Virus record (IMG/VR): IMGVR_UViG_3300031758_000053
Length of the DNA stretch: 64,000 nt
DNA from: an uncultured virus (IMG/VR IMGVR_UViG_3300031758_000053)
Lineage: Duplodnaviria > Heunggongvirae > Uroviricota > Caudoviricetes
Direction: 5' to 3' (one strand)
Part shown: one piece after another, positions 11,289-64,000 of the stretch
Numbering within the stretch: position 1 is the first letter of the stretch
Layout: each line of letters opens with the position of its first letter
Notes under the pieces: model-generated
What the model saw: only the letters and a program-made list of their open reading frames with translations
What the model was told of the DNA's origin: nothing
Database searches by the model: none
Program-made: the position numbers and the translations under genes

Positions 11289-11480
11289 ATGACCACTGCG
11301 TTTACCGTGGTTATCAAAGAAATTGAGGAGCGCCGCGAATCCATCGCGCAGGCGCTTATCTCAGGCTCGGCAAAAGATCATGCTGAGTATCGTGACTTGT
11401 GTGGCGAGATCCGGGGTCTATCGCGTGCACATGCTTTTATAACTGACCTCGTGCGAAAGATGGAAAACGACGATGAGTGA
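11289..11480 (+). CDS. hypothetical protein
   Basis: AAGGAG SD; EYRDLCGEIRGL motif typical of genes following the portal. Confidence 0.75.
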   Translation: MTTAFTVVIKEIEERRESIAQALISGSAKDHAEYRDLCGEIRGLSRAHAFITDLVRKMENDDE

Positions 11481-11877
11481 AATCCTCCTAAGTGATGGTG
11501 CAAGCACCACGGTATTGCCCGAGACCGACGCAGAAAAGGCCCGTCAGGTGCCTGATCCTGTGACTTATCACTTGCTCTGCATGCTGCCCAAAGCGGATGA
11601 AGAGTATGAAAGCGGGCTGGTCAAAGCAGGCCAGACCATGCATTTCGAAGAGGTGATGAGCCCGGTGCTGTTTGTTGCCAAGATGGGGCCTGATTGCTAC
11701 AAAGATCCGCTGCGCTTTCCCAGCGGGGCTTCATGCAAGGTAGGCGATTTCGTCTTAGTCCGACCGAATACGGGCACGCGCCTGAAGATTCATGGTACGG
11801 AGTGGCGAATCATCAACGACGACAGCGTTGAAGCGGTTGTCCAAGATCCTCGTGGCATCCAAAAGGGAGGACGCTGA
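11473..11877 (+). CDS. GroES/Cpn10-like co-chaperonin
   Basis: P...LL...P....SGL....V.KMGPD.Y...CKVGDFVL.....G.......WRIINDDSVEAVV pattern. Confidence 0.78.
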   Translation: MSEILLSDGASTTVLPETDAEKARQVPDPVTYHLLCMLPKADEEYESGLVKAGQTMHFEEVMSPVLFVAKMGPDCYKDPLRFPSGASCKVGDFVLVRPNTGTRLKIHGTEWRIINDDSVEAVVQDPRGIQKGGR

Positions 11878-11878
11878 T

Positions 11879-12808
11879 ATGTCGGAGTTCAAATTTCCAG
11901 ACGAGATTGAGGCTGAAAAGCCTACGGAAGAGAAGCTGCAAATTGAGATCGAAGGCGAAACCGAGATTGAGGTTGTTGACGACACGCCGCCGGAGGATCG
12001 CAACCGCAAGCCGATGAAGGAGGCTCCCGCAGAGGTTACCGATGATGAGTTGGAACAGTATTCTGAAGGGGTCAAAAAGCGCATCCAGCACTTCTCCAAG
12101 GGCTATCACGAGGAGCGCAGGGCCAAAGAAGCGGCGTTGCGTGAGCGTGAAGAGGCAGTACGTCTTGCTCAAAATCTTGTTGAGGAGAACAAACGCCTTC
12201 AGGGTAGTTTGGGACAAGGCCAGCAAGCCCTGCTTGAACAAGCCAAGAAGGTTGTTCAAAACGAACTTGATCAAGCCAAACAGAAGTTCAAAGCCGCTTA
12301 TGAAGCGGGAGACTCTGATGCTTTGGTTGAGGCTCAAGAAGCACTTGCCGCTGCTAAATACAAAGCAGAGCGAGTAAACAATTTCAAGCCAGCAGTTGCA
12401 CAGCCGCAAACTCCTGTGGTACAACCCGCACCACAGGCAGAGCAAAGTGTCCGTATTGATCCGAAAGCTGATGCTTGGCGTGATGCCAATCCTTGGTTTG
12501 GGTCAAATGATGAGATGACTGCTGTGGCCTTAACGGTTCACAAAAAACTTGTTGATAGCGGAGTAGACACCAACAGCGACGAGTATTACGAGAAAATCAA
12601 CTCTCGTGTACGGCAGATCTTCCCAGATGCGTTTACCTCTGAGAAGCCAGCTAAAAAAGCCGCAGTTGTAGCTCCCGCCACGCGAAGCACAGCGCCCCGA
12701 AAAATCGTGTTGACGCAATCACAAGTTCAAATCGCCAAACGGCTCGGACTGACTAATGAACAGTACGCCCGTGCGGTTGCGGAAGAAATGAGGAAACAAA
12801 ATGGCTGA
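11879..12808 (+). CDS. probable capsid scaffolding protein
   Basis: Acidic N-terminus, long coiled coil, NPWFG and LT..Q..IAKRLGL C-terminus; upstream of MCP. Confidence 0.7.
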   Translation: MSEFKFPDEIEAEKPTEEKLQIEIEGETEIEVVDDTPPEDRNRKPMKEAPAEVTDDELEQYSEGVKKRIQHFSKGYHEERRAKEAALREREEAVRLAQNLVEENKRLQGSLGQGQQALLEQAKKVVQNELDQAKQKFKAAYEAGDSDALVEAQEALAAAKYKAERVNNFKPAVAQPQTPVVQPAPQAEQSVRIDPKADAWRDANPWFGSNDEMTAVALTVHKKLVDSGVDTNSDEYYEKINSRVRQIFPDAFTSEKPAKKAAVVAPATRSTAPRKIVLTQSQVQIAKRLGLTNEQYARAVAEEMRKQNG

Positions 12809-14105: not shown

Positions 14106-15014
14106 ATGGCAATTTCACGTGCCCAACTACTGAAGGAACTCCTGCCCGGTCTGAACGCCCTGTTCGGCATGGAGTACAAGCGCTACGGCGAAGAGCACAA
14201 GGAGATCTACGAGACGGAGACCTCCGAGCGTTCGTTCGAAGAAGAAACCAAGCTCTCTGGTTTCTCCGCAGCCCCGGTGAAGAACGAAGGTTCAGCAATC
14301 CAGTACGACAACGCACAGGAAGCCTGGACCGCTCGTTACAACCACGAGACCATCGCTATGGGTTTCTCCATCACCGAAGAGGCGATGGAAGACAATCTGT
14401 ACGACAGCCTGTCTGCTCGGTACACCAAGGGTCTGGCTCGCGCCATGGCCTACACCAAGCAGGTTAAGGCCGCTGCGATCCTGAACAACGGTTTCTCCAG
14501 CGCTGTTACCTACGGCGACGGGCAAGCTCTGTTCTCGACCGCGCACCCGCTGGTCTCCGGTGGCACCAACAGCAACCGTCCCACGACGAACGCTGACCTG
14601 AACGAAACGTCCCTCGAAGCGGCTGTGATCCAGATCGCTGGTTGGACGGATGAGCGTGGTCTGCTGATTGCTGCCAAGCCCCGCAAGCTGATTGTTCCTC
14701 CGAACCTCCAGTTCGTCGCAACCCGACTGCTGGAAACGTCGCTGCGTGTCGGTACTAACGATAACGACATCAACGCGCTGAAGAACAACGGCAGCATCCC
14801 GGAAGGCTACACGATCAACCACTTCTTGACCGACACCAATGCGTGGTTCCTGACCACGGATGTGCCTAACGGTCTGAAGCACTTCATTCGTGTGCCGCTG
14901 GCTACGTCGATGGACGCTGACTTTGATACCGGCAACAGCCGTTACAAGGCTCGTGAGCGTTATTCGTTCGGCGTGTCTGACCCGCTGGGCGCGTTCGGTT
15001 CTCCCGGCGCTTAA
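14106..15014 (+). CDS. major capsid protein (HK97 fold)
   Basis: MAISRAQLLKELLPGLNALFG..., GDG.ALFST.HPL, KPRKLIVPP, YKARERYSFG; strong SD and biased codons; terminator follows. Confidence 0.93.
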   Translation: MAISRAQLLKELLPGLNALFGMEYKRYGEEHKEIYETETSERSFEEETKLSGFSAAPVKNEGSAIQYDNAQEAWTARYNHETIAMGFSITEEAMEDNLYDSLSARYTKGLARAMAYTKQVKAAAILNNGFSSAVTYGDGQALFSTAHPLVSGGTNSNRPTTNADLNETSLEAAVIQIAGWTDERGLLIAAKPRKLIVPPNLQFVATRLLETSLRVGTNDNDINALKNNGSIPEGYTINHFLTDTNAWFLTTDVPNGLKHFIRVPLATSMDADFDTGNSRYKARERYSFGVSDPLGAFGSPGA

Positions 15015-51500: not shown

Positions 51501-54500
51501 ACTTCTTTGATGCGGTCAAGACTGCCTTTGGTGGTGAAGTCACCGCAGAGCAAGTGTTCCGTAAGGTTGAGAAGGGTGCTCTGAAGGCGGAGGCTAAGGC
51601 AGAAGCTGCCCCGGCTAAACAAAGTTTGCGTGAAGTTCCTCTGTCCACTCGTGGGTTGATGGAAGTTCAGCCCATCGTAGCGATGCAGGAGCTTGGGCTC
51701 AAAACAGATGCTGTCCGCAAGCCGGGTGGCATTGAGTTGTTTAACGATGTCCGCTCCATCGCTCTTGCACTTAATCAAGACACCATCCGAAACAAGGGCA
51801 AGATCGCCAAGACCGATACCTCATTGACCTCGGAAAAAGAACTTGCGAGGGCAATGGTTGATGAGATTGGCTACCAGCTAAAAGCAACTGCAGGGACCGG
51901 CACTGGCAAAGGTTGGTACTCGGACAACTATCCCAAGGCAGTTAAGAAGCTGGGCAAGCTGTTCCCAGAGCTTGAGACAGATCCATATGCCAGAACTGTT
52001 TTCTCTGCATTGGTTGCTATTACCTCCAATGGCGAGAAAGTATCTCTCAACGTAAAGAACGCCATTAAGCTCTACGAAGACATTCGTATGGGCAAAGACC
52101 CGCGTAATATTGGTTCTCGCCGCAAAACTGCACTGGATAATAACATTGCAGTTGTCATGCAGCTAATGAAGCAATATGGTCCCACTGGAATGCGCAATGA
52201 ATTATTGCGTGAGATTACAGTTAAGGACATGAACGCTATCCTGCGTTCACGCGGAGAAAAGCCCGATACCTCTTATCTTGCGGATACCAAAGTACCTGCT
52301 GCGGCATTGTATTTCGGGCCAAAGCTAGGCGCATTCTTCTCCAATCTTGAAGGCGCAGAGGGCTATCTGACGATGGATATGTGGTGGACCCGGACGGTTA
52401 ACCGCATGCGTGGGCAGTTGGAATCAAAGGCCACCGAAGCGTCCATCAAGAAGTTTGCCGCGATGATGGATAAGCCAAATGCCACCCGAGATGAGGTGGT
52501 GGCGGCAACCATCCCGCTGCGTAACAAATATGAAGAGTTTGGCTGGCACACTGAACTAGAAGAGTTAGTGGGCCGCAAAGAGCCAGCAGAAGATAAGGAC
52601 AAGCCAGCCTGGACGGCAAGGGCGAAGCGTCAAGCTGGCCCCGCATATGAAGCTCTCTTGTTTGAACATCGTCTTGAGAAGATGGCTAACACCATCTACA
52701 AGAACGAGTATGAGTTGCTGGAAGAGGCTCCGTTTACATCCACCGACCGAGAGTTCATGTACCGCACGGCTAGGCGGACTCAGAGCCTGCTCAAGGCCGA
52801 AGGCATTAACCTGTCACTAGCAGACATCCAGGCCGCTCTCTGGTACTACGAGAAGCGTCTGTATCAACATTTGAGTGGAAGGAAAGCAGATGACATCGGA
52901 TACGACGAAGCCATCACCCAACTCGCAGGGGAAAGTACTCGACCCGCAGGACCCTCTGTGGTCTTCGCTGGACAACCTGTTTCTGGGGCTGGAGCCACAG
53001 GAGCGGGCGCAGCAGTTGCTGGAGTTAGTGCGCAGCCTGTCCAGCTAAAGCCAAGCCTGCGTGAAAAAGCATCCTGGGATGACAAGCGCATTGAGCGTTT
53101 AATTGATCAATACGGCTACACCGATGGGCGTACCTACGGTATTGCTGCGTATGTAAACCCGGAAGAGTTTGTCCGCGCAACCACTCCGTCCAAAGAGTTT
53201 GCCGATGAACTCAAGGCAGAGGCTGGGGCACTTGACCGCGATCAGATAGCCAAAGAAACTCAAACGCCATTCTTGGAATGGGACATTGAGAAGGGCGTCA
53301 TCGTTGGTCATGAAGGCAGGCATCGTATGTCTGCGCTTTCTGCTGAAGGTGTTGAGTCTGCCCCGGTCGTGCTGTACGTCAAGGATCGGTATGGCTCTAA
53401 AAAGCCGGATCAGTATGAGCGCCAGGATTCTGTATCCATCAAGGGGCAGAAATTCCAAGACGGTGTTGGCAGACCTCTGACGGCCACCAACCTGATTCCA
53501 CTTGAGTACAGGCAGGCCAAGTCACTGAGAGAAGAATTTGCCGCAGCGGCTGGTGTTAAGTACAGCCTGCGCGTAAACATCCCGGCAAGCGCACGCGCAC
53601 GGGTTGTTGCCACTATTGCCTCCCGTCAAGAGAAGGGCTTTGTTGAGCGCCTCATGGAGGCGATCTCTCCAACGTCCTACTCCGACTTCCGTGCCCAGGC
53701 TCTGAACCGCTACAACCAGCTTGGTGTTTACGACAAGATCCGCGCCAAGAAGATGGGTGGTGCTGCGCTGCTTGCTGATTCCAGCGCTGAGTCTGCTGCC
53801 CTGCTGTCTGACCTGGGTGCTGGTCTAACCGCTTCCGCGCTGGGTGTGCATGACCGGATGGGTGGCATTCCTGTGTTCAGGAACGGTATCACCATCATCA
53901 GCAACCAAAACGGCACGATCAAAGGCCCGACCGCGATCTTTGCCCCGTTGGCTGCTGATCCGGCTCATTATCAGGACTATCAGTTCTGGGCTGGCGTGAA
54001 GCGTGGTTCGCGCTACATGCAAAACCCACAAGGCAAGTACGAAGAGAAACTGTTTACACCATCAGACGTCAAAGAGGCGGAAGTAATTCGCAAGGCATAC
54101 CTCAAGGCGGGGATTGACTTTGAGGCCATGCAAAAGGAGTGGATCAAGTACAACGACGGTCTCGTCCAGTACATGGTCGATACCGGCGTGCTCTCACAGG
54201 AGCGTGCTGACCTGTACCGTAAACACGCAGACTATCTGCCCTTCTATCGGCAGATGGACGGCAGAGAGACCATTGGCCCGAAGGTTTTCCAAGCCATCTC
54301 TGGTGTCAAGCCGCCTAAAGCCGCTAAGGGTGGAGAGGCCCTGCTTGATGACTTTTTAGAAAACATTGTCCGCAACACTCAGTCTGCGATCCAGGCTGGC
54401 GTCAAGAATGTCGCAGCCCAAAGAGCCGCCAAGGTGGCTATGGACATCGGCATGGCATCGCGGCTGGGCTTCAAGTCCTCCGCAGCCGGAACCTTTGATG

Positions 54501-56158
54501 TTCTGGAGAACGGTCAGGTTGTCACGTACCAATCAAAGGATGAGCTTTTCATCAACGCCATCAAGAGCCTTGGTATTCCTGACCTGCCGTTTATAGGACT
54601 GTTGTCTGGCCCCGCGAACTTGCTTCGCAATCTGGTAACCAAAGACCCAGGCTTCATGCTTGCCAACCTGATGCGTGACTCAATGTCCGCATGGGTTACC
54701 TCCGGCGTGAAGATGACCCCGATGGTAAACACCTTCACCAACTTTGGTGCTGCTATCGCAGGCAAAGACCCGGCCTTCCAAGCTCTGATGAACGCAGGCA
54801 TTTTGGGTGGCTATGAGTTCTCGCAGAACGTGGAGCAGAGCGGGCGTGAGTTCGGCAAGGCTCTGAGGAAGCAAGCCAAGATCAAGTCCACCGGGCTCAA
54901 GGGCGCAGCAGAGATGGGCGCTAAGCCGTTTACATCTCTGTGGGATGCGCTGGAGAAAGGTTCCACTGCATCTGACGCAGCCACTCGGATGGAGGTCTAC
55001 AAGCGCACGCTGGCCGAGACCAACAACGAAGCAGAGGCTCTGTTTAGAGCGCTTGAGGTGATGAACTTCAACCGTAAAGGATCTTCTGCTGTCGTAAGAA
55101 TTCTTACCGCTGCGGTGCCGTTCTTAAACGCACGCATGCAGGGCCTGGATGTTCTGTACCGCGCAGCTTCGGGGCAGATGAACGCTCGTGATGCAGCGCA
55201 GATCCAGAAGCAGTTCTTTGTGCGCGGCGCAATGATTGCATCCTTGTCTGCCGCTTACTGGCTGCTGACGCATGACGATGAGGAATACAAGAAGCAGGAG
55301 CAGGAGACAAGAGACAACTACTGGCTTCTTCCTTCGCTGGGCGTCAAGATCCCGATCCCCTTTGAAATCGGTGTGTTGTTCAAGGTGATCCCTGAGCGCA
55401 TCCTTGGTTACACATTTGGTAGCGACACGGGTGAAGACTTCCTGAAGTCGATGGCTCGGCAGTTGACCAGCACCCTTGCGTTTAATCCAATCCCGCAGGC
55501 GGTTATGCCTGTTGTGGAGACGATGACCAACTTCTCCTTCTTCACCATGCGCCCGATTGTTGGGCAGGGACTGGAAGGGTTGCAACCTGCGTACCAAGTT
55601 GGGCCGGGTACGTCTCGTCTGGCAGAAGGTTTAGGAGAGATGACCAAGGGGATGGCAAAGGAGTTGCAAGTCTCCCCAATGAAGATCGATCAGTTGATCA
55701 GCGGGTACACCGGCACGATGGGCATGTATCTGATGAACCTGATGGATGCCGTTTACGACATGAACACGGACTCGCCCAAGCCTGCCAGAAGGTTTGAGCA
55801 GATGCCTCTGATCCGTCGCTTTGCAGTTGATCCTGAGGCCCGTGGAAACGTCACCGCGTACTACGAACTCAAGAACTCGGTGGACTCCATCGTCCGCACC
55901 TCCAACATGCTTGAGAGGACGATGAACTATGAGGAGTTGCCCGGTTACCTGATGGACAACATGAAGATGTTGGCCTCCAAGGATTACATCCTTGATCTTG
56001 AGAAGACCATGAAGGAGTTCCGGGAGATGAAGATCCTGATCCGCTCAGCTTCTATGGACGCAGATGCCAAGAAGGACGCCATCCTGGCAATCGATCAGAT
56101 GGAGAACCAATTGACATCCAACATCCAGTACATGAAGAAGCTGGCTAAGGGAGACTGA
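48590..56158 (+). CDS. 2522-aa polyvalent ejection protein (metallopeptidase HExxH, HhH-glycosylase-like, ParB-like and LPD38-like regions)
   Basis: HESIH at 51212; GWY..TS..N..K...F..NL....T.D.W..R..QA.LW; HEGRHR at 53309; RDNYW...KIPIPFEIG.LFK..PER near the C-terminus. Confidence 0.8.
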   Translation: MAIRIQLFDGSLLEFPDNTPQDVIDRVAKQETLARQPAPQPRPVIEPPKKEGVMAAFGKGLESLLGSSRTAVGAFTGSPEEAALAALERQKQSPYADQVSLEKVSEAAKRGLLPAAGEVARQVPLAIAEQAPNVLATLGSAKAGSLLGAKLGTAVAPGVGTVVGGIGGGILGALTPSLLQQFGGNIQRQAQEQQAQGKPIDISRTSAGLAAVPQAGLDVAASLIPLGRTFAGKVLGPQVEELLKRGSVEGAERLARESLPTVLGKGAAISIATEVPTEVIQTMLERSQAGLALTTPDALAEYGNVAYQAGLLAPIGAVGRVGERAAARSEALLPGQRRGESDMDFANRLSQEIGNDRAYVAMQQAEQAEAAKRQAALEQMKQAIGDGLLTPEVVKQWGFGKGSIFDSLVNKNLSNPEDASFVADVLAAYRPKAHPNTQVKIDDALAGIEAMFGAKPTSQTEGAADVGTAITEPSGAGVQVAGEPSAGATTPRLGAPEPAGVVPPVEDARQPAGGAEAAPPAVAPPLALPAPVEPEVVTPAAEAVTPPTEPVVETPAAEKPVEAPAAQKPAVELPKSLQDMSPANRQLYELDRNIEEAKTPASGIDWEIKDTLAPEERGMTFESATDQLNSYLAGIKDLDGKLRSGNRTGSTPGRLIEMWKNASQTQAFIEQQKQQKPELWANYQARQADVANLKEGDAVITPNGEQAILDKKFPKNWRVKLPNEEMRLYPPTSFRRAEPAAKLSAAQIPKYKIVQTQVEGLDGKIKRAWNVVDAKDDYIQDTFDTRAEAQDWVRGVKERAAKPSLAEEAKPLPITPEIQEKIDQLEKVLKKIMNKYGLKDVALKLIDNMKAEGEYAQSVVRLALDAVNPVQALRHESIHALKELGFFSPQQWAALEKQAKSKWIDQYLKTKNINKEDLEEGQKSRYDAYMELYKGDMDAIIEEAIADAFGDFDVNKAPPGLMQAILTRLRNFFDAVKTAFGGEVTAEQVFRKVEKGALKAEAKAEAAPAKQSLREVPLSTRGLMEVQPIVAMQELGLKTDAVRKPGGIELFNDVRSIALALNQDTIRNKGKIAKTDTSLTSEKELARAMVDEIGYQLKATAGTGTGKGWYSDNYPKAVKKLGKLFPELETDPYARTVFSALVAITSNGEKVSLNVKNAIKLYEDIRMGKDPRNIGSRRKTALDNNIAVVMQLMKQYGPTGMRNELLREITVKDMNAILRSRGEKPDTSYLADTKVPAAALYFGPKLGAFFSNLEGAEGYLTMDMWWTRTVNRMRGQLESKATEASIKKFAAMMDKPNATRDEVVAATIPLRNKYEEFGWHTELEELVGRKEPAEDKDKPAWTARAKRQAGPAYEALLFEHRLEKMANTIYKNEYELLEEAPFTSTDREFMYRTARRTQSLLKAEGINLSLADIQAALWYYEKRLYQHLSGRKADDIGYDEAITQLAGESTRPAGPSVVFAGQPVSGAGATGAGAAVAGVSAQPVQLKPSLREKASWDDKRIERLIDQYGYTDGRTYGIAAYVNPEEFVRATTPSKEFADELKAEAGALDRDQIAKETQTPFLEWDIEKGVIVGHEGRHRMSALSAEGVESAPVVLYVKDRYGSKKPDQYERQDSVSIKGQKFQDGVGRPLTATNLIPLEYRQAKSLREEFAAAAGVKYSLRVNIPASARARVVATIASRQEKGFVERLMEAISPTSYSDFRAQALNRYNQLGVYDKIRAKKMGGAALLADSSAESAALLSDLGAGLTASALGVHDRMGGIPVFRNGITIISNQNGTIKGPTAIFAPLAADPAHYQDYQFWAGVKRGSRYMQNPQGKYEEKLFTPSDVKEAEVIRKAYLKAGIDFEAMQKEWIKYNDGLVQYMVDTGVLSQERADLYRKHADYLPFYRQMDGRETIGPKVFQAISGVKPPKAAKGGEALLDDFLENIVRNTQSAIQAGVKNVAAQRAAKVAMDIGMASRLGFKSSAAGTFDVLENGQVVTYQSKDELFINAIKSLGIPDLPFIGLLSGPANLLRNLVTKDPGFMLANLMRDSMSAWVTSGVKMTPMVNTFTNFGAAIAGKDPAFQALMNAGILGGYEFSQNVEQSGREFGKALRKQAKIKSTGLKGAAEMGAKPFTSLWDALEKGSTASDAATRMEVYKRTLAETNNEAEALFRALEVMNFNRKGSSAVVRILTAAVPFLNARMQGLDVLYRAASGQMNARDAAQIQKQFFVRGAMIASLSAAYWLLTHDDEEYKKQEQETRDNYWLLPSLGVKIPIPFEIGVLFKVIPERILGYTFGSDTGEDFLKSMARQLTSTLAFNPIPQAVMPVVETMTNFSFFTMRPIVGQGLEGLQPAYQVGPGTSRLAEGLGEMTKGMAKELQVSPMKIDQLISGYTGTMGMYLMNLMDAVYDMNTDSPKPARRFEQMPLIRRFAVDPEARGNVTAYYELKNSVDSIVRTSNMLERTMNYEELPGYLMDNMKMLASKDYILDLEKTMKEFREMKILIRSASMDADAKKDAILAIDQMENQLTSNIQYMKKLAKGD
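49983..50156 (+). CDS. candidate overprinted 57-aa gene nested in +1 frame of the polyvalent gene
   Basis: AAGGAG SD at 49971-49976; MLERLSPNQVERAFKWL...EWFLLSRMLDNLLEEQKQHRLQ. Confidence 0.5.
   Translation: MLERLSPNQVERAFKWLASPVQEPPPQDLEPLNQQEWFLLSRMLDNLLEEQKQHRLQ
52890..53048 (+). CDS. candidate overprinted 52-aa gene nested in +1 frame of the polyvalent gene
   Basis: GGAAGGAAAGCAG-ATG; MTSDTTKPSPNSQGKVLDPQDPLWSSLDNLFLGLEPQERAQQLLELVRSLSS. Confidence 0.4.
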   Translation: MTSDTTKPSPNSQGKVLDPQDPLWSSLDNLFLGLEPQERAQQLLELVRSLSS

Positions 56159-56408
56159 GCTTCTTGACCGTGTCATTGAGCACGGTCATCTCGTCCTTCT
56201 TGTAAACAGACCAGATCCTAGCCTGCCCGTGGATGCCGTTAAAACTGCCCTGGTGGCAGTCCTTGCATAACGGTATGCAGAGATAGTGGAGCCCCTGCTT
56301 GATGTGGTGAGCATCAGAGGGGCCTCTTGCTTCACAGACCCCGCATGGGAGTTCCTTGATTCGCGCCAAATGTTCCCTGTCGAGCGAGGTCAGGTTTTTG
56401 CTGTTCAT
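56145..56408 (-). CDS. Ref/DUF968-like HNH Zn-finger nuclease
   Basis: PCGVC....DAHH....IPLCKDCH....GIH. Confidence 0.72.
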   Translation of the reverse strand: MNSKNLTSLDREHLARIKELPCGVCEARGPSDAHHIKQGLHYLCIPLCKDCHQGSFNGIHGQARIWSVYKKDEMTVLNDTVKKLSLP

Positions 56409-56637
56409 CTGCAATCTCAATGAGCTTCTGTAGGTAGTGCGCAGCTTTTTTAATATCAGTCACGCCGCCCTTTGCCGGGTTTCCAATGGTGTTGAAACGC
56501 GCCAAATATCCAATGGCAGACCCCAGCAGGAAACCTTGAAATTGTTCTGGCGTCATCCATGCTTCCATTGCGTCCCAAGGCTCGACGGACAACTGTTTAT
56601 AGTGTGAGCCAGCGATCTGAATTTCATTAGCGCTCAA
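56332..56637 (-). CDS. DUF3310 (SaV / T7 gp1.7-like) protein
   Basis: Q..GSHY...EPWD....F..G.AI.Y..R...KGG..DI.KA.HYL..LIE. Confidence 0.8.
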   Translation of the reverse strand: MSANEIQIAGSHYKQLSVEPWDAMEAWMTPEQFQGFLLGSAIGYLARFNTIGNPAKGGVTDIKKAAHYLQKLIEIADEQQKPDLARQGTFGANQGTPMRGL

Positions 56638-56744
56638 AATAGGGCCTCGCCTGCTTCTGTAGCCTGCGCATAAGCGGACTTACGCGGGGCAGTGTTTATA
56701 AAACATCTTCCGTCTTTGTAGCTGAACATGAAGGGCCAGTTCAC
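56634..56744 (-). CDS. 36-aa hypothetical protein
   Basis: GTG start overlaps the upstream TGA; its stop overlaps the next start. Confidence 0.45.
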   Translation of the reverse strand: MNWPFMFSYKDGRCFINTAPRKSAYAQATEAGEALF

Positions 56745-57004
56745 CACGGCATCTTTTGGAGCGCGGACGTATCGAACTTCGGTTCCTTTGGCTTCTTCTT
56801 GTAGTTTGACTTCGGTGTGTGGCGCATCACCTTGTCCAGAAACTGTTGCGTCTCCGCAGGCATCTGCGTCTCTGAACTCAGACGCTCCTCCGTCAGCCAC
56901 GAGTGATTGCATGACTTGCATATCCTCCTGCGCCATACCATGTCCTCTGTTCGTCGGGACTCTGGTGTAAGTTGTTTGATACTGCCGCATTTTGGGCATT
57001 TCAT
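56741..57004 (-). CDS. NrdR-N-like Zn-ribbon protein
   Basis: MKCPKCG......SR......RRR.C..C...W.T.E. Confidence 0.72.
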   Translation of the reverse strand: MKCPKCGSIKQLTPESRRTEDMVWRRRICKSCNHSWLTEERLSSETQMPAETQQFLDKVMRHTPKSNYKKKPKEPKFDTSALQKMPW

Positions 57005-57489
57005 TCCTCCCCTCGCAATCCACGCCACTGTCTGAACTTCTGCCCGTTCTTCTTGGGGCCGTAAGACATTGTGTACATCGCATCCTTTGGTGATGATCCT
57101 TGTGGATACCAATCAATGCCATCCCAATAGGCATAGACAGACTCAATTTCCTGGCCGGGTCGCCAGCTTTGGTCAACCATGTAAACGCCGGGGCGAACGG
57201 GATCGACATCTGGCGGGAACCAGGGCGTGAGAAACGGGTCTTCCAGTTTTTTGTACTCCATACCAAACAGGGCATTTAGCCCTGGCAGTAATTCCTGAAG
57301 TAACGCGCTTCTGTCAACATGGCTGAAGTCCGCCAAAGGCTGTTCTCTGATGAAATCGTGCAGCTCCAAGATCACATCAATGGCAATCTTCACGCTGGCA
57401 CCTTCGCCATCAGTGAACCTGATCCAGTCGCCGTAGAGTTCTACATTCTCTGCGCGGTCGATCTCCGCGCCGTCGTCGTTGATGTTCAT
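57001..57489 (-). CDS. chimeric protein: acidic N-terminus, copy of MCP N-terminal peptide, TPWF..PVR.G.Y..WRGL domain
   Basis: AGGAG SD; ELLPGLNALFGMEYK identical to MCP residues 11-25. Confidence 0.8.
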   Translation of the reverse strand: MNINDDGAEIDRAENVELYGDWIRFTDGEGASVKIAIDVILELHDFIREQPLADFSHVDRSALLQELLPGLNALFGMEYKKLEDPFLTPWFPPDVDPVRPGVYMVDQSWRPGQEIESVYAYWDGIDWYPQGSSPKDAMYTMSYGPKKNGQKFRQWRGLRGEE

Positions 57490-57773
57490 ATCGCTCCTAG
57501 TTGCCACACACTATTTGCCACCGGCTTGCGTACAGGCACAGCCTTGACTGCCTTGGGCTTTACTCGCAGCACAGGTGGCTTGCTCTTGGTTAGATATAGC
57601 CCACGCTTGGCACCGGGCACCATGTTTACAAGGCACCCCTTTTTGACCAAGTTGTGCACCGCATAGCGGGCCTTGTCGGGCCACTGATGAAAGTGCTGAC
57701 GGATCTCTTTCATGGTGCGTAGGCGGTAACAGAAGTCCAGCACAGCGGCGGAGTGTTCTTTGACGAACTTCAT
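57486..57773 (-). CDS. putative wHTH DNA-binding protein
   Basis: AV.NLVKKG.L helix; C-terminal NSVWQL; ATGA coupling. Confidence 0.55.
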   Translation of the reverse strand: MKFVKEHSAAVLDFCYRLRTMKEIRQHFHQWPDKARYAVHNLVKKGCLVNMVPGAKRGLYLTKSKPPVLRVKPKAVKAVPVRKPVANSVWQLGAI

Positions 57774-57952
57774 TGCTTCTCCTGCGTTGGAAAAAAGTTC
57801 TTGGGTGAAGACCCAAAACACAACAGCACGGTAAGCGCAAACCACCACCCAGACCACCCGCGCTCTGCCACCAGCCAAGCAGTGCCAGTAAGGACAAAGA
57901 TGTCAAACACAAGCATGCCGAAGTACATGAGCATGCGGTAGCTGTTTTTCAT
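57770..57952 (-). CDS. small membrane protein
   Basis: Two hydrophobic segments, GWSGWWF. Confidence 0.6.
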   Translation of the reverse strand: MKNSYRMLMYFGMLVFDIFVLTGTAWLVAERGWSGWWFALTVLLCFGSSPKNFFPTQEKQ

Positions 57953-58200
57953 TCCTCCCCCTTCAGATACCGCTCCACCGCCCGAGCGAAGTGGTGGTGG
58001 AACCCGCCGTTCTGGTGCCACAGGTCAGCGATGACCTCGTCGGTGAGGGTGCGTTCAATGGGCGGGTGTGTGTAAAGAGGTGTTAGCCCTTCGGACCGAT
58101 GGCTGGCTGTGTTTGCCCACGCACGTATGCTCATGTGCGAGCGAAGGTCGTTGAGTTCCTCCAACTGATGGTTCCATGCCCATACAACAGGTTCACTCAT
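57949..58200 (-). CDS. hypothetical protein (PLYTHP..LTDE.I..FARAVE)
   Basis: Motif common in small phage proteins; coupled ORF. Confidence 0.62.
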   Translation of the reverse strand: MSEPVVWAWNHQLEELNDLRSHMSIRAWANTASHRSEGLTPLYTHPPIERTLTDEVIADLWHQNGGFHHHFARAVERYLKGEE

Positions 58201-58381
58201 CTTCCACCTCCACAAAGTCTCCGTTAGGACACGGACCATGCCCGACCCACGGGCCGATCCACGATTGACGCTGCGCGTCTGGGGATACAGGGTTGATGTT
58301 TACATTCCGTCTGCATTGTTTGCACTGATCAAGCAAGGGATTTGACATGCAGCGGGCGAAGTCTTGGGCGAGGTATTTCAT
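58193..58381 (-). CDS. Cys-rich hypothetical protein
   Basis: DFARC..C..C.R. Confidence 0.6.
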   Translation of the reverse strand: MKYLAQDFARCMSNPLLDQCKQCRRNVNINPVSPDAQRQSWIGPWVGHGPCPNGDFVEVEDE

Positions 58382-58549
58382 TTACTTTGCCCTTACGCAG
58401 CGGTACTCAGTAGGCTTGATGCCTAACTCTTTAGCAGCGTTTTCACAAAGTTGTTGACCGTGAAACTCGCCGATTGGTCTCCAATCAGTCTTGACATAAG
58501 AGCGGTTCATGGCTACCACAGTCCAAAGCATAAGAATGTACGTTGTCAT
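58382..58549 (-). CDS. 55-aa protein with hydrophobic N-terminus and Cys pair
   Basis: Not in ORF track; MTTYILMLWTVVAM..EF....CENAAKEL...YRCVRAK. Confidence 0.55.
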   Translation of the reverse strand: MTTYILMLWTVVAMNRSYVKTDWRPIGEFHGQQLCENAAKELGIKPTEYRCVRAK

Positions 58550-58782
58550 GTTCTGCTCCTGATTGCCTCACCAACATCACCCAGGTAGTCAGCGTAACGT
58601 GATGTCTTGTCACGCATGCTGTCGGCCAGCTTGGCGCAGGCTTCTCGCTCCATCAGACAACCTGCTTCAAACGCTGCCCAGTTGCTGCTTCGTTTGATAA
58701 CCTCAAAGTCTTCCACGGTAGGCGGTGAGGTAGTCTTGCGTGTAGCTTTCATCCAAGCCAGCCATGCTTCTTCGATGGTCAT
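58546..58782 (-). CDS. hypothetical protein (EREACAKL..AIR.R)
   Basis: Coupled ORF; common phage motif. Confidence 0.6.
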   Translation of the reverse strand: MTIEEAWLAWMKATRKTTSPPTVEDFEVIKRSSNWAAFEAGCLMEREACAKLADSMRDKTSRYADYLGDVGEAIRSRT

Positions 58783-59042
58783 ACTTGCCCCTCCGCTCTT
58801 GCAATAGCGGCGCGGGCCGCATTGATGTCGCTTTGCAAGTCCCACTTCTTCTGGAAGTAATCTGTAGCGTAGGTGCCCCAATGCTCAATTGCATCGGTTG
58901 CATCTTTCAACGCCTGTAGCAGGTCAGCATTCACCGCATGCAACCGGCGCAGTTCGGCGGCGGCTTCATCGCAGGTTGGGAATCCGCTGTATCGCGCTCC
59001 CAATTGGTCAGCCAGCCGCAGTGCAGTAGGTTGTTCATTCAT
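58779..59042 (-). CDS. hypothetical protein (QP.ALRLAD..AAAELRRLH..ARAAIARA)
   Basis: Coupled ORF; common phage motif. Confidence 0.65.
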   Translation of the reverse strand: MNEQPTALRLADQLGARYSGFPTCDEAAAELRRLHAVNADLLQALKDATDAIEHWGTYATDYFQKKWDLQSDINAARAAIARAEGQV

Positions 59043-59350
59043 ACTTTCCTCCCCCACAAACGCCCCCAGCGTTTACGCCAAGCGTCGGCGGTCTCCTCAG
59101 AAACCTCCTCCATGATGGCGTCGGCTTCATTCAGAGCATGCTCCATCTCCACCAGCACACGGTCTTGCTCGGTGTTCTGCGCCTCTAGGCTGCACTTACT
59201 AGGCATGCAGTCCTGCGTGGCGCAGTGTGGCTGCTCCAGCGCGGCCTCCAACGCCCGCTCCGCATCACAAGGCTGCGTGCAAGAAATCTCGCGGCGGTAT
59301 CCGCGCAGGGACTTCAGCGCCTGACGCGCAGCGTCTCTTAGGTTACTCAT
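59039..59350 (-). CDS. hypothetical protein
   Basis: LR.AA.QAL N-terminus; coupled. Confidence 0.6.
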   Translation of the reverse strand: MSNLRDAARQALKSLRGYRREISCTQPCDAERALEAALEQPHCATQDCMPSKCSLEAQNTEQDRVLVEMEHALNEADAIMEEVSEETADAWRKRWGRLWGRKV

Positions 59351-59531
59351 CTTTCACCTCATCAAACTCAAACACTTCGTGAATATCGCCCCAAACTGCG
59401 TTTTTGATTTGTTCAATGATCTCGTGCTGACTCGGGGCATCGGTGTGTTTATACGCACGGCGCAAACCGCGTTCGATGCCACGGTCGATGGCATCCTCAA
59501 GGATGACGCGAATCTTCGGTTTAATGCCCAT
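59343..59531 (-). CDS. hypothetical protein
   Basis: G..RAYKHTD.P motif. Confidence 0.6.
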   Translation of the reverse strand: MGIKPKIRVILEDAIDRGIERGLRRAYKHTDAPSQHEIIEQIKNAVWGDIHEVFEFDEVKDE

Positions 59532-59742
59532 GAGGTTTGCCTCCTTCGTCCAACGGCTGCATACCCATCATGTGCATAGCTTTACGCACAGCGTCCGACA
59601 GGTCGAGCCAGTCGTTCCAGCCAACAACCGACGGAAGTTCAACTTTGACGCACACCCCGTCAACCATCGTGACGGTAGCCATCAGCGTTTTCATTTCGTC
59701 ATCATCGATCTCGATCCTGGTCGGAGTTACAGACAGTTTCAT
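59521..59742 (-). CDS. hypothetical protein
   Basis: Coupled ORF with SD. Confidence 0.55.
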   Translation of the reverse strand: MKLSVTPTRIEIDDDEMKTLMATVTMVDGVCVKVELPSVVGWNDWLDLSDAVRKAMHMMGMQPLDEGGKPHGH

Positions 59743-59963
59743 TTCAGTCTCTCCTTGAGCATGGCATCTGCGTAGTCGTAAGCCAACTTCGCCGCCTCTG
59801 TTGGCATGTAATCCTCACAAGTCACCTGCAGAGCATTCGCCGCGAAGTAATCGCGCAGGGTCATGCCTGTATAAACGATATTGTCTGTAACCCTGACGGT
59901 GAATGCGGGGCCGCCTGTGCCTTTGACATCAAGCGTTGCATCCCATTGCTCTAGTTCAGTCAT
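59739..59963 (-). CDS. hypothetical protein (GMTLRDYFAA..AY..ADAML family)
   Basis: Widespread small phage protein motif; AGGAGG SD. Confidence 0.75.
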   Translation of the reverse strand: MTELEQWDATLDVKGTGGPAFTVRVTDNIVYTGMTLRDYFAANALQVTCEDYMPTEAAKLAYDYADAMLKERLK

Positions 59964-60169
59964 ACATCCTCCTTCAACAGCCCTCTCCAGGGTAGGTCTT
60001 GGAACCGGGAAGAAACTTGATTGAGAGACGCACCGCCGACGGTCCTTGCCGCGAAGTTCCACCCGGCACCATTCCAGTACGAATACTCACGGTTGCCGCA
60101 GTGGTCACGCTCGTAGATACCGATCCGCACGGGGTGCTCTCCCCCATCAAACCAAGGGGTTTTGTTCAA
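59960..60169 (-). CDS. TPWF..PVR.G.Y..WRGL domain protein
   Basis: TTG start overlapping the upstream TGA; paralog of the 57001 C-terminal domain. Confidence 0.62.
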   Translation of the reverse strand: MNKTPWFDGGEHPVRIGIYERDHCGNREYSYWNGAGWNFAARTVGGASLNQVSSRFQDLPWRGLLKEDV

Positions 60170-60366
60170 ACGAAGTACCCCACAAGAGCGGCAATCAAAC
60201 CAACCACAGCGAAGATCACCAAGACACCGATGGCAAACTTGGCGGTCTCCTCCAGCATCATTTCCCTGGAGTAGAAGTCTGGCTCTTCCTGCCCCACCTC
60301 CGTTGAGGCTTCTGCCGCTTCTGGATAGCGGCCCTGCTGATCGCATCCATTTGGAACTTTGTTCAT
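60166..60366 (-). CDS. small membrane protein (DQQGRYPEAA motif)
   Basis: C-terminal TM helix; coupled. Confidence 0.6.
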   Translation of the reverse strand: MNKVPNGCDQQGRYPEAAEASTEVGQEEPDFYSREMMLEETAKFAIGVLVIFAVVGLIAALVGYFV

Positions 60367-60587
60367 TGCATCCTCTCAACTTTCTTGGCGAGAAGCCACT
60401 TGTCCAGTAATGAAGGTTGTGCTGGCGGCTCATCGGGTTTTGCCTCAATCAACTTGGCAAACACCCACCTGTCACCGAGCCTGTTGATTGATCTTGACCA
60501 CTTCAAGGCATTGGCCCGGTTTGTTTCACGTGGAACGTCCTTGACGTTCCACAACTCCCTGGCGTGTTTCAACAGCTTGGTGTTCAT
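60363..60587 (-). CDS. hypothetical protein
   Basis: NR....W.RS...LGDRW. Confidence 0.6.
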   Translation of the reverse strand: MNTKLLKHARELWNVKDVPRETNRANALKWSRSINRLGDRWVFAKLIEAKPDEPPAQPSLLDKWLLAKKVERMQ

Positions 60588-60823
60588 TGCTCAACCCCTC
60601 TCTCAAACTTGCGGTAGGTATGGAGGATGCCCTCCATAAGGGTGTGAGCACTCATCCCTTCCAGGGATGCCAGCTTGCAGATCAGGATTGACAGTGCTGT
60701 GTAAATCACGACAGAGTCCATGCCGCCATGCTTCATTGCCAACTCTTCTGCGTTGACTGTGAAGTCTTTGATCAACTGGCTGATCATGATGTTGTCGATC
60801 TCGTCTTGAGTTGCTTCTTCCAT
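60584..60823 (-). CDS. hypothetical protein
   Basis: GAGG SD; coupled. Confidence 0.6.
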   Translation of the reverse strand: MEEATQDEIDNIMISQLIKDFTVNAEELAMKHGGMDSVVIYTALSILICKLASLEGMSAHTLMEGILHTYRKFERGVEQ

Positions 60824-60826
60824 GTC

Positions 60827-61009
60827 TCACCTCTTGATGTTCTTCTGGCTCTTCTGCGGAGCCTTGTTCACCTCAGGGAATGACGCAGGCTGAGTTCCTG
60901 CCCCTCGTTCAGAGGCCCAGATCAGGGTCGCCTTGTCCTTCGCCGCCTGCGCCTTGCGCTGGTTCTCCGGCTTCATGCTGTCGGGCATGGTCTTCTCTTT
61001 TCGCTTCAT
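60827..61009 (-). CDS. hypothetical basic protein
   Basis: AAGGAG SD upstream; overlaps the 3' end of the RHH ORF. Confidence 0.45.
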   Translation of the reverse strand: MKRKEKTMPDSMKPENQRKAQAAKDKATLIWASERGAGTQPASFPEVNKAPQKSQKNIKR

Positions 61010-61304
61010 GTTGGTTCTCCTTGATTGCTAGTTTCTGAAGGTCTTCGTTTACAAGATCAGCGAATGACTTCCCAGACGGGAACCTCATACGCGCTGCCTT
61101 GTTCTCTGCTACGGATCGCATAGCATCTTTGAGTGCCGTGTTGTAGCCATGTGAGTATCTATCACCTGCCGCAATACGCGCATCAATACTTTCCCTAATG
61201 ACCTGAGCCATCGGCACATCATTCTTGGATGCAAAGCGTTTAAGCCTTGCATACTGGTCAAATGTCAGGTAAGCCATGAAAGGCTTGAGGTTAGAAATCG
61301 TCAT
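60909..61304 (-). CDS. ribbon-helix-helix DNA-binding protein
   Basis: FMAYLT..QY.RLK.FA....PMAQVIRESID. Confidence 0.62.
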   Translation of the reverse strand: MTISNLKPFMAYLTFDQYARLKRFASKNDVPMAQVIRESIDARIAAGDRYSHGYNTALKDAMRSVAENKAARMRFPSGKSFADLVNEDLQKLAIKENQHEAKREDHARQHEAGEPAQGAGGEGQGDPDLGL

Positions 61305-61677
61305 TGGCGTCCTCGTACTCTTTGACCAACTGATCAAACAGAGCCTGAGCCTTGGCATTGCCATGCAACTCGGTACGCGACAGGATGCCGCACCGTTTAC
61401 ACAACTCATCTACCGCCTCGTTTTCTGAGGTCGGCCACCCAAGGTGGTCCCAGAAGTTTGGGTTCTTGCACAGAATCCCGGCCTTCTGGACCCGGTTGTT
61501 GTATGCAGTCGGTGTTTCGTCGTCTTGTATTCGCACGATGGCGCAGGCATACCTTGTCCCGACAAAGTCCCGGAGGATCTCCTCCGGCACCTCGTCAGGG
61601 TGCAGAGACAGGGTGAGCACGTAGCCCGTCCGGTCCTGCTTCAAGGCTACCTTCCGTGCTTCAAACTGAAGTGCCAC
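61291..61677 (-). CDS. conserved hypothetical protein
   Basis: LTL..HPD.VP...; AG.LC..P.F; CGI.SRTEL..N. Confidence 0.7.
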   Translation of the reverse strand: MALQFEARKVALKQDRTGYVLTLSLHPDEVPEEILRDFVGTRYACAIVRIQDDETPTAYNNRVQKAGILCKNPNFWDHLGWPTSENEAVDELCKRCGILSRTELHGNAKAQALFDQLVKEYEDANDDF

Positions 61678-61984
61678 GGAGTCTTCCCTCCAGCCATTGA
61701 ATGATGATGTTCAAACGGGCTACCTCTTCATGCAGGACAACAATGGTCTTGTTCTTGTCTGCAATCAACAGGTCATGCTGCGTCAATTCCTGACGCAGAA
61801 CCTCCTGCCCTCGGGTGACCTTGGGCTTCTTGGAAGCCTTGCTGCGCTCCTTGGAGTTAACCAAGTAAACGTAAGTGATGTCACAGCCAACAGCTACAGC
61901 CACATCCTTGGGCTTGGCGCTGGGGTTTTCCGCTTGGTACTTGCGAACAGCAGCGGCCTTGTTCATCTTCTTTTCAGAACTCAT
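61661..61984 (-). CDS. HTH plus coiled-coil protein
   Basis: KAAAVR.Y..NP.AKP.DVA...G....YVY.V. Confidence 0.6.
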   Translation of the reverse strand: MSSEKKMNKAAAVRKYQAENPSAKPKDVAVAVGCDITYVYLVNSKERSKASKKPKVTRGQEVLRQELTQHDLLIADKNKTIVVLHEEVARLNIIIQWLEGRLRGTSV

Positions 61985-62243
61985 CGAAGTCATCCTCCTT
62001 CTTGGGGGCAGCCTCACGGGTCATGCGACCCACAGACAAAGACAGGTACGTTGCACCGGCCTTGCTCTTCTTCTTCCACCCGGACAGCTTGTAGATGTAC
62101 AAGCCGTTCTCGATGGTGACGTTGCTCATATCCTTGGGGTTGATGGCAATCTCACCCCAGTAGTCAGGACTCTTCTCGCTCTTCTTGGATTGAGCGGCCA
62201 TCAAACGCCCGGAGTCGGGCTTCTGTTCAAACGTGTTGTTCAC
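61974..62243 (-). CDS. putative ssDNA-binding protein
   Basis: K....PDY.G......LSGWKK.SK.G..YLSLSV; acidic-aromatic tail DDFDEF; near Sak. Confidence 0.62.
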   Translation of the reverse strand: MNNTFEQKPDSGRLMAAQSKKSEKSPDYWGEIAINPKDMSNVTIENGLYIYKLSGWKKKSKAGATYLSLSVGRMTREAAPKKEDDFDEF

Positions 62244-62413
62244 AGCTTCTCCACATACTTCTTGATTGCAGTCTCAACTGCGAGGGACTTGGAAACCTTC
62301 AACTCTTCCAAGCCTGCGGGCAGGGTCTTCCTGATCGCCTCTTGGATTTCAGAGATCAGGGCTTCAGTCTCCAGGGGCAGACTGATGATGTACCGCTTCT
62401 TTGCTTCACTCAC
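62240..62413 (-). CDS. 57-aa hypothetical protein
   Basis: Not in ORF track; AAGGAG SD with GTG start; fills the gap with overlaps at both ends. Confidence 0.55.
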   Translation of the reverse strand: MSEAKKRYIISLPLETEALISEIQEAIRKTLPAGLEELKVSKSLAVETAIKKYVEKL

Positions 62414-63080
62414 TTGCGTTCTCCTTGAACTTCGCCTTCATTTCGCTGAAGACATCGCGCACCCGAGTAAACAGATCCGGGTGATTGCTCTTGAGGTCAT
62501 CGATCTTGGTCTGGTTTGCTTTCCAGTAAGACTTCAAACCGGCTTCCGTCTTGCAGATCAAGACAAACTCCACCATCCCATCTGCGAACAACTCCGCAGA
62601 CGCACGGTCCAACTCAGAATGAACCGCAGCAGCCTTGACTACCGGGTCTTCCTTCTTGGTCTCTTCCTTCTTGGGCTCCTCTTCATCCTCCGCCATCGGA
62701 AGGTCTTCACCTGCGTAGATGTTTAACCCCAGGCCATGCAGCGCCAGAGCCTTAGCCATGCAGCGCATGATTGCGGTGTTGACTTGAAACGAATCCGGGT
62801 TTGGGATCGGCTTGTTGCGGTGATCCATCACGGGCAGGAAACAGGTCATCTCCTTGCCAAAGATCGTGACCCGCACCCACACCATGCCTGTACCGCCGTT
62901 CACCTCCATGTAAGGAATGGTTGTGCCGTCTGCGCGTTCAAACGTCTCAACGTGGAACGTGGCTAAGGGGTCTGCCTTCAGTGCCTCTGCCCATGCGTGT
63001 GACCATGAGAGGTATGAGAGGTTGTTCTTCTTCTCAACGTGCTTTGATACGTCGAGCGCCAACAATTTACTGATCGTCAT
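62406..63080 (-). CDS. sak: Sak (Rad52-like, DUF1071) single-strand annealing protein
   Basis: VEKK..LSYLSW..AW; LPVMD..N; N..IMRC..KA.A.HGLGL.IYAGED.P. Confidence 0.88.
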   Translation of the reverse strand: MTISKLLALDVSKHVEKKNNLSYLSWSHAWAEALKADPLATFHVETFERADGTTIPYMEVNGGTGMVWVRVTIFGKEMTCFLPVMDHRNKPIPNPDSFQVNTAIMRCMAKALALHGLGLNIYAGEDLPMAEDEEEPKKEETKKEDPVVKAAAVHSELDRASAELFADGMVEFVLICKTEAGLKSYWKANQTKIDDLKSNHPDLFTRVRDVFSEMKAKFKENASE

Positions 63081-63939
63081 CTGATTTCCTTTCGTCTTGG
63101 AACTGCTTGCACCATTGAGCCACGCCGCAGAAGTTGCCCGTACAACGGCGTGGTTCTCCCAGTCTTGTTTCAACGTATCCCTTCTCCTTCTCTGCCAATG
63201 CTTTGGCTTCTTCTTCATCCTTGAGGACGCGGATGGCTGTCTTCCTGCCCTCTCTCTTGACGGCATAGACCGTCTCTGACATCCAACGATCCTCGTTGGA
63301 ACAAGGGGCCAACTCATCTCCTAGATCGTGATCAACCTTGGAGATGCGATGCGCCTCAAGCCTTTCCCGGATGTAGGCTTCTGTCTTCTCCAGAGGCCAC
63401 ACCTCAAGATCAACCATCTCAATCGGGGCCTTTGGATAGCCCTCCTTGGTCTCATGGCGGCTGAAGTCCCGAACCAGAGCGCAGATGCGAAGACCCACAA
63501 CCTTTTTGCCCTTGACCTTCTCAACCAAGAACCTGTAGACGTTTAACTGCTGGACCCACTCCAGCTTCTCTTGCATCACTGCCCACGCAGATGTGAACTT
63601 GTAGTCTGTGATGATGACGCCGAAGGGCGTCTCCTCTTGCAGGTCAATCGCTCCGCTGATCGTTACTCCATCCACCTCATAGAACAGGCGCTCTTCAGTA
63701 ATGAAGCCTGGGGTCTGCCCTCTTTCCATCACTACGTGCAGTGCCGAGCCGAGCATCGACCACAGCATGTCAGAGACATCCTGCTCAATAGCATCGTCGT
63801 ATTGTTCGCGCAAGCGCCTGATGCGCGGCGGGCTCATCAACTCCGTGACGCTGTACTGCGACTTGCCCTTGCTGTAGTATTCGCGGGAAGCGAGTGTCAC
63901 TAGGGGAAGTGGCACATCATGTTTGTTTGTGATCTTCAA
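63067..63939 (-). CDS. PD-(D/E)XK (Cas4/RecB-like) exonuclease
   Basis: YSVT.L..P..; G.A.H; E; SG.ID; DYK; QLN.Y; C...C....C.Q; TTG start with GGAGAG SD. Confidence 0.85.
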   Translation of the reverse strand: MKITNKHDVPLPLVTLASREYYSKGKSQYSVTELMSPPRIRRLREQYDDAIEQDVSDMLWSMLGSALHVVMERGQTPGFITEERLFYEVDGVTISGAIDLQEETPFGVIITDYKFTSAWAVMQEKLEWVQQLNVYRFLVEKVKGKKVVGLRICALVRDFSRHETKEGYPKAPIEMVDLEVWPLEKTEAYIRERLEAHRISKVDHDLGDELAPCSNEDRWMSETVYAVKREGRKTAIRVLKDEEEAKALAEKEKGYVETRLGEPRRCTGNFCGVAQWCKQFQDERKSDDDQ

Positions 63940-63967
63940 GGAAGCTCTCCGATGTGTGATGATCCAC

Positions 63968-63996
63968 ATGATAGTGCTAGTGCGAACACTCTGCAA
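63968..63996 (-). promoter_or_regulatory. sigma70-like promoter for the right-hand leftward operon
   Basis: TTGCAG-17 nt-TATCAT upstream of the nuclease SD. Confidence 0.62.
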
Positions 63997-64000
63997 GTGG

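Follow-up and report, generated by a model that had tools for sequence, protein, structure and literature searches.

A copy of the capsid protein N-terminal arm recurs on unrelated small proteins of tailed phages and may serve as a docking tag

Background

In phage P22, a helix-turn-helix at the C-terminus of the scaffold binds the N-terminal arm (N-arm) of the coat protein, which is helical only in the procapsid (PMC9965877). In phage 80alpha, the C-terminal helix-and-hook of the scaffold packs on helix alpha1 of the N-arm and SaPI1 CpmB competes there (PMC5644958). T-even internal proteins are diverse and have only a capsid targeting sequence in common (PMC3012670).

The window analysed here is a whole stretch of 64,000 nucleotides from an uncultured tailed phage of a lake (IMG/VR IMGVR_UViG_3300031758_000053). 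One of its small genes carries, between two domains, a peptide (the tag) closely similar to the N-arm of the phage's own major capsid protein (MCP). The contact proposed below resembles that of P22 in pairing a basic scaffold C-terminus with the N-terminal helix of an HK97-fold coat protein; it differs in that there is no sequence similarity between the two systems and in that the contact in the window's phage is a putative one.

CpmB is like the tag in that a short helix from one partner of the scaffold/MCP N-arm contact has been put on another protein. However, CpmB is a satellite's copy of the scaffold C-terminal motif, whereas the tag is the phage's own copy of the MCP N-arm. CpmB competes at the contact; the window's tag is not known to affect capsid size or assembly. 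The tag was also considered as a scaffold mimic of the CpmB type; this was rejected, as the copied piece is the MCP N-arm and the tag profile had no match to the scaffold frame.

Results and discussion

Genome context

The genome group of the window includes Planktothrix phage Pag-Yong1, Pelagibacter phages HTVC023P and HTVC027P and Roseobacter phages CRP-901 and CRP-902, all tailed phages. Its MCP shows 55 to 74% identity to those of these three phage sets, and 61 to 74% to the first seven cultured relatives among the matches listed (Pag-Yong1, HTVC023P/027P and others). In the head module (Table 1), two genes without known function lie between the scaffold-like gene and the MCP gene, and the tail genes lie downstream of the latter. 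The GroES-like gene was called from the position of the annotated genes of Pag-Yong1 and CRP-902.

The tagged gene sits elsewhere, on the minus strand, in a series of small genes (56145-64000) whose other products include an exonuclease, a zinc-ribbon protein and a protein with DUF3310. The label 'early/middle arm', given to this cluster in the preliminary description, was deduced from gene order alone. The last gene of the structural operon, which converges on the accessory cluster, encodes a protein of 2522 aa (48590-56158, plus strand) whose PHROG matches are confined to its last ~700 residues and to PHROGs without known function. Near the other end of the window, a 631-aa protein (1729-3624, minus strand) has PHROG matches that are CobT-like (cobaltochelatase subunit), and is possibly the product of a vWA/AAA-associated host-takeover gene.

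Table 1. Positions of the features discussed (window coordinates unless another source is named)
Feature	Position	Strand	Evidence or remark
Terminase	7371-8870	+	
Portal	8886-11279	+	
GroES-like co-chaperonin gene, head module, between portal and scaffold	11473..11877	+	ORF; same-position gene in Pag-Yong1 and CRP-902 annotated GroES
Scaffold-like coiled-coil protein, 309 aa	11879..12808	+	Placed between portal and MCP
Scaffold C-terminal 45 residues, basic (pI 10.95), conserved	12671..12805	+	Alignments, charge computation
MCP, 302 aa	14106..15014	+	PF25209 (E 8.6e-15), PF10124, phrog_371
MCP N-arm, residues 2-28, source motif of tag	14109..14189	+	
Accessory gene, 162 aa + stop: N-domain, MCP-arm-like helix, C-domain	57001..57489	-	ORF list, homologue starts, AF2
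C-domain, residues 84-162, phrog_26541	57004..57240	-	PHROG E 1.2e-8
MCP N-arm-like tag, residues 57-83	57241..57321	-	BLASTP, peptide profile (63 bits), dN/dS
15-residue core identical to MCP residues 11-25	57250..57294	-	36/45 bases shared with own MCP
N-domain, residues 1-56, acidic (pI 4.05), three strands + helix	57322..57489	-	AF2, charge computation
Second, stand-alone C-domain copy (approximate start)	59960..60169	-	BLASTP 15/40 identities, E 1e-6, to ORF residues 88-127
T4 gene 61.1	L183 3967-4131		Gene 23 match at T4 105116-105229

A gene of three modules

The open reading frame that carries the tag (hereafter the ORF) ends at 57001-57003 and can be read either from GTG 57507 (168 aa) or from ATG 57489 (162 aa). 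The latter is likely to be the start, because homologues begin there, an SD-like AGGAG closely precedes it and the ATG shares bases with the stop of the preceding ORF. At the other end the stop overlaps the start codon (ATG 57004) of a gene downstream for an NrdR-like zinc-ribbon protein, so that there are ATGA overlaps with both neighbours.

An AF2 model of the protein (pLDDT 77.5, from a 41-row alignment) divides it into three parts. The N-domain is found in relatives alone or with other tails. The tag is predicted as a separate helix at residues 60-75. The C-domain is beta-rich and well predicted; it belongs to phrog_26541. The match spans residues 84-159 counted from ATG 57489 (in the 168-aa reading, residues 90-165) and takes in positions 4-72 of the 77 in the profile. 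It also occurs as stand-alone phage proteins of ~75 aa, sometimes in tandem, and most of the 150 representatives among the matches listed match only this domain. The stand-alone copy in the window closes a longer open frame; the phage thus has fused and free versions of the domain.

No Pfam match was obtained for the ORF, nor did tblastn find a match to it in cultured phages. Foldseek returned no PDB match to its model at E ≤ 0.001 and the best Z in a wide VIA-align search was 4.0, so that at the thresholds used neither domain is like any solved structure; BFVD matches were to small phage proteins only, all of them uncharacterised. The ORF was rejected as a capsid paralogue (HK97-fold, PF25209/Mu gpT-like), since only 24 residues align with the MCP and there is no Pfam match. 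An apparent relative of 2870 aa with repeats (P0009) proved to be a low-complexity artefact.

An old copy of the MCP N-terminus

In a single BLASTP comparison the ORF matched the MCP N-terminus with 18 identities in 24 residues (E 3e-10). The preliminary description had reported that 15 residues are shared, with codons that differ only synonymously, and this was confirmed: between the core and MCP positions 14136-14180, eight codons and 9 of 45 bases differ, with no residue change. By the Nei-Gojobori method there are 8.0 synonymous differences in 10.8 sites and 1.0 non-synonymous difference in 34.2 sites (Fisher p = 6e-6), the latter being a path-averaging artefact of one TTA/CTC leucine pair. 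The similarity stops at the segment, as the 60 bases on either side of its 27 codons are identical to the MCP flanks at chance level (13/60 and 16/60).

Compared with the 13 distinct MCP arm sequences of relatives, the core is identical at 34 to 39 of 45 bases, while pairs of MCP arms are identical at 32 to 44 (median 37, 78 pairs). No sampled MCP gene came closer to the core than 39/45 bases and no recent DNA donor was found among them. This divergence indicates that the copy dates from when these phages separated, or from before. Among 9,948 stop-to-stop frames taken from 59 sources (the window and loci), a peptide profile picked up MCP N-termini, homologues of the ORF and one other small ORF; all other frames scored ≤ 6 bits.

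Selection on the segment

Among 29 candidates, eight proteins are homologues of the ORF. Four have the segment, two (P0004 and P0005) lack exactly 35 residues there and two consist of the C-domain only. For the four homologues compared at the DNA level (window, L002, L041 and L042), dN/dS of the segment was 0.10 to 0.26 where dS was not saturated, in the range of the N-domain (0.15 to 0.34) and the C-domain (0.06 to 0.18). These values indicate that the segment evolves under purifying selection, and they carry out the dN/dS check that the preliminary description had suggested. Together with the distance of at least six bases from any sampled MCP gene, they also uphold its argument that the peptide has been selected and does not stem from a recent duplication of DNA.

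The same description had held that its interpretation would fail if homologues lacked the segment or showed it decaying. The first is partly the case, as P0004 and P0005 are without it entirely; elsewhere it is conserved rather than decaying. As its dN/dS is like that of the domains on either side, the segment functions as part of the protein in those homologues that have it, and it is dispensable as a whole.

The insert (57241-57345) shows far greater synonymous divergence than the adjoining N-domain (57340-57489), for example 0.72 versus 0.15 between the window and L002. This suggests either that the gene has a mosaic history or that synonymous sites of its N-domain are under constraint.

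The tag on unrelated carrier proteins

To find non-MCP copies, records of related viruses were searched with three queries: the MCP, an alignment of the tag (27 columns) and an alignment of a carrier family. On sequence evidence, a helix like the MCP N-arm is present on at least five kinds of small protein without mutual similarity. The full arrangement of the window (N-domain, tag, C-domain) recurs in L002, L041 and P0001-P0003, and an N-domain followed only by the tag is found in L042, P0010 and P0016. In record G004 (95% complete, with an MCP 91% identical to that of the window) the tag is at the C-terminal end of a protein of 128 aa, here called an X-domain carrier. A 90-aa relative of this carrier in the complete record G024 ends in a half-diverged tag. 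A different carrier of 119 aa (Y-domain) also has the tag at its end in G023 (99% complete), while in the fragment G040 it stands at the start of a 77-aa protein, before a Z-domain. Thus the question raised in the preliminary description, whether non-MCP matches recur in related genomes, has a positive answer for X, Y, Z and N-domain carriers.

The X family, of ~90 aa and defined by the carriers of G004 and G024, has 255 members at E ≤ 0.001 among 1275 candidates from a protein collection. The tail was found in all 15 IMG/VR loci detected with the family alignment, and the tail motif in 117 of the best 120 of the 255 members. A profile built from 26 MCP arms only matched 56 of 120 X-family proteins and none of 120 shuffled controls. 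Conversely, 16 of the records searched contain an MCP gene, and in each of them the tail part of the X-family profile matched the N-terminus of MCP. Pooled pN/pS was 0.35 for the tail and 0.23 for the body, with pS saturated.

When the tag was removed, the two X members matched each other and no other pair matched: N-domain, C-domain, X, Y and Z show no mutual similarity (best cross-family E 0.35). Computed charges make three of the carriers strongly acidic and a fourth basic. Pfam and PHROG searches gave no family for the X, Y, Z and N-domain carriers, the one weak PHROG match, for P0010, being below Pfam-like certainty.

Two further searches added no carriers. With MCP residues 1-40 as the query, the best 120 of 935 protein matches were MCP fragments only. 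A pattern scan of IMG/VR for the glutamine-bearing (Q-type) tag gave nine loci, made up of four known carriers, two truncated MCPs and three chance matches.

Distribution among relatives

A non-MCP copy is present in three of the seven records that are ≥ 90% complete (G004, G023 and G024). None was detected at the sensitivities used in the other four (G021, G022, G026 and G027), and in nine cultured relatives tblastn (E ≤ 10) found the MCP copy only. The tag is therefore dispensable for assembly. Fifteen short fragments around MCP genes also had no non-MCP copy, as expected from their size, and the window itself has no X-family gene.

In G026 the MCP gene is seen at both ends of the record (1128-2030 and 64788-65462), as expected of a circularly permuted or terminally redundant assembly and not of a second capsid gene.

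Positions kept by the copies

The MCP N-arm is highly constrained, with 16 of 27 positions invariant among 26 distinct arms from 142 MCP frames. Ten non-MCP copies keep only part of this pattern. R5, L12 and P14 are found in all ten, E11, L13 and G21 in nine, and positions 8, 9, 16, 19 and 20 are always hydrophobic. In contrast, of the sites that are invariant in MCP, G15, N17 and A18 are each kept in four copies and S4 and Q7 in only two. The kept hydrophobic positions (8/9, 12/13, 16 and 19/20 in MCP numbering) are spaced by three to four residues, forming one face of a helix. The copies may therefore share one of the several jobs of the MCP arm, namely a contact made in the helical state.

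The preliminary description had asked whether a copy co-varies with its own genome's MCP. No such co-variation emerged: between the window, G004, G023 and G024 the MCP arms hardly differ, unlike the tags. None of 13 X-family contigs holds an MCP gene with which to extend the comparison.

A rule that the MCP-invariant K10 is never K in the copies held in the ten copies and was dropped, as many X-family tails have K. Two IMG/VR fragments (L175 and L176) hold truncated MCP genes with Q in place of the otherwise invariant K at this position of the arm.

A putative docking tag

We tentatively favour, as plausible rather than probable and by analogy with known scaffolds, a portable docking tag that binds the partner of the MCP N-arm and tethers its carriers to proheads. 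The middle module of the ORF is an old copy of the MCP N-terminal arm helix, kept by selection, and one instance of a peptide that the clade has put on five or more kinds of small carrier without detectable mutual similarity. The tag would bind whatever the helical MCP arm binds during head assembly, most likely the conserved basic C-terminal end of the scaffold or, alternatively, the assembling MCP lattice. Docking would tether the carrier domains to nascent proheads, either as cargo to be packaged or as modulators of scaffold-MCP assembly. The copy, its selection, its recurrence and its conserved positions are the observations on which this proposal builds; partner, binding and outcome are what it would add to them.

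The choice of dock is suggested by the scaffold itself. Scaffold homologues are 32 to 54% identical overall, and their last ~45 residues are both the best conserved and the most basic. By analogy with P22 and 80alpha this would be the MCP-binding end; conservation, charge and these precedents are why the scaffold C-terminus (or the MCP lattice) is proposed as the dock of the tag. Complex prediction for the scaffold C-terminus and the ORF, run without controls, gave a score of 0.00, which carries no weight either way as to binding. The AF2 model of MCP has a pLDDT of 36 (13-row alignment), with a low-confidence helix at 5-19, and PDB sequence and profile searches with MCP gave nothing useful. 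Given this low confidence, the helical state of the arm is taken from the model of the ORF and from analogy.

Some features of the locus fit docking less well. The gene is outside the head module, among small minus-strand genes beside replication and nuclease genes, where packaged proteins are not usually encoded. In the ORF the tag lies inside the chain and not at an end. Among the genes of the head module none was recognised as encoding a head protease able to release cargo. Furthermore, the tag does not serve this phage as a general loading signal, since it is missing from those large proteins of the window that are presumed to be internal to the virion.

Alternatives to docking

The preliminary description had thought first of a decoy or inhibitor, in which carriers present the arm helix and occupy a host defence protein that senses MCP without triggering it. 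Capsid proteins do trigger several defences (CapRel, Lit and PifA), and the MCP arm hardly varies within the clade; it would thus be a good target for a defence, as the phage cannot escape by mutating it. Tagged genes are, moreover, patchy accessories among small genes without known function, present in three of seven near-complete relatives, and a patchy accessory distribution is typical of counter-defence genes. However, no MCP sensor is known for these uncultured phages, and many copies have changed at positions where MCP is invariant; a sensor matched to MCP might not accept such drift. A decoy would need the peptide only, yet in the 255-member X family the carrier domain is more constrained than the tail. 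A literature search at title and abstract level gave no example of a phage-encoded capsid decoy. Many unrelated carriers with one tag are better explained by a docking or address label than by a single dedicated decoy; the decoy reading, which we consider unlikely, is nonetheless a serious rival.

An assembly poison or exclusion factor, with the tag titrating the scaffold or MCP of co-infecting relatives or delaying the phage's own head assembly, has the evidence for docking in common with the preferred reading. The arm is the same in all relatives and a mimic would therefore act across phages; competition by SaPI1 CpmB at the N-arm/scaffold contact redirects assembly (PMC5644958). The same invariance means, however, that the phage could not spare its own assembly, and nothing marks its scaffold as resistant. 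We consider this reading improbable.

Less probable still is a chaperonin signal, in which GroEL and the phage's GroES-like protein would recognise the amphipathic arm and the tagged proteins would be clients or blockers. A GroES-like gene is indeed present in the head module of the window and of cultured relatives, and the conserved part of the tag is the hydrophobic face of a helix. However, chaperonin recognition is generally not sequence-specific, which fits poorly with the retention of R5, E11, P14 and G21.

Finally, a recombination scar, that is, a functionless piece of the MCP gene that landed in an interdomain linker, is compatible with homologues that lack the segment (P0004 and P0005) and with the free shuffling of the gene's domains, but it is disfavoured, and in our view hardly credible, on the sequence record of purifying selection, recurrence on unrelated carriers and residues kept while synonymous sites are saturated. 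As a whole, the interpretation offered in the preliminary description is partly supported.

Comparison with T4

The putative docking tag has its nearest counterpart in the capsid targeting sequence of T4, which is likewise a short conserved peptide on diverse small proteins and loads these into the prohead. One short peptide common to otherwise unrelated small proteins is what was found here, on five carrier types. There are also differences. The T4 sequence is not described as a copy of MCP, whereas the tag of the window is a copy of the MCP N-arm. In T4 the signal stands at the N-terminus and the head protease removes it; neither an N-terminal position nor removal by a protease characterises the tag. 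It is internal in the ORF, C-terminal in the X, Y and N-domain-only forms and N-terminal only in the form of G040. For the tag, moreover, both a protease and the packaging of carriers are putative.

A second parallel lies within the T4 genome itself. Residues 3-40 of gp61.1, a protein of 54 aa annotated as hypothetical and encoded by a gene that adjoins the primase gene, match residues ~58-95 of gp23 with 45% identity (E 1.4e-5 within the T4 genome). Like the ORF, gp61.1 is a small protein, encoded outside the head genes, that copies an N-terminal part of its own MCP. Unlike the proteins of the window it consists of the copy and a lysine-rich tail, with no carrier domain; the two have no sequence relation and gp61.1 is uncharacterised. 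A search of the literature outside subscription journals, at the level of titles and abstracts, found no published account of MCP-arm copies.

Conclusions

Judged by its conservation and recurrence in sequence, the feature is real, selected and recurrent, and it is best filed with the known class of short head-assembly docking peptides. A bolder form of the docking proposal, which we think doubtful taken as a whole, is that tailed phages use a coat-arm label to bring diverse proteins, small and for the most part acidic, into the prohead by way of the scaffold for co-injection into the next host, for instance for counter-defence in the first minutes, and that this design is widespread and unrecognised, with T4 gene 61.1 as a tractable example.

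Short docking peptides are known to decide both the contents of phage heads (the T4 targeting sequence) and their shape (SaPI1 CpmB). A coat-arm tag on hundreds of small proteins without known function would name a partner and a site of action for a large share of the phage 'dark matter', and capsids could be loaded with proteins by means of this natural handle. If, instead, the decoy reading is true, the tagged proteins would be the first case in which a phage encodes a mimic of an immune trigger from the capsid. The parallel between T4 gp61.1 and gp23 offers a model system.
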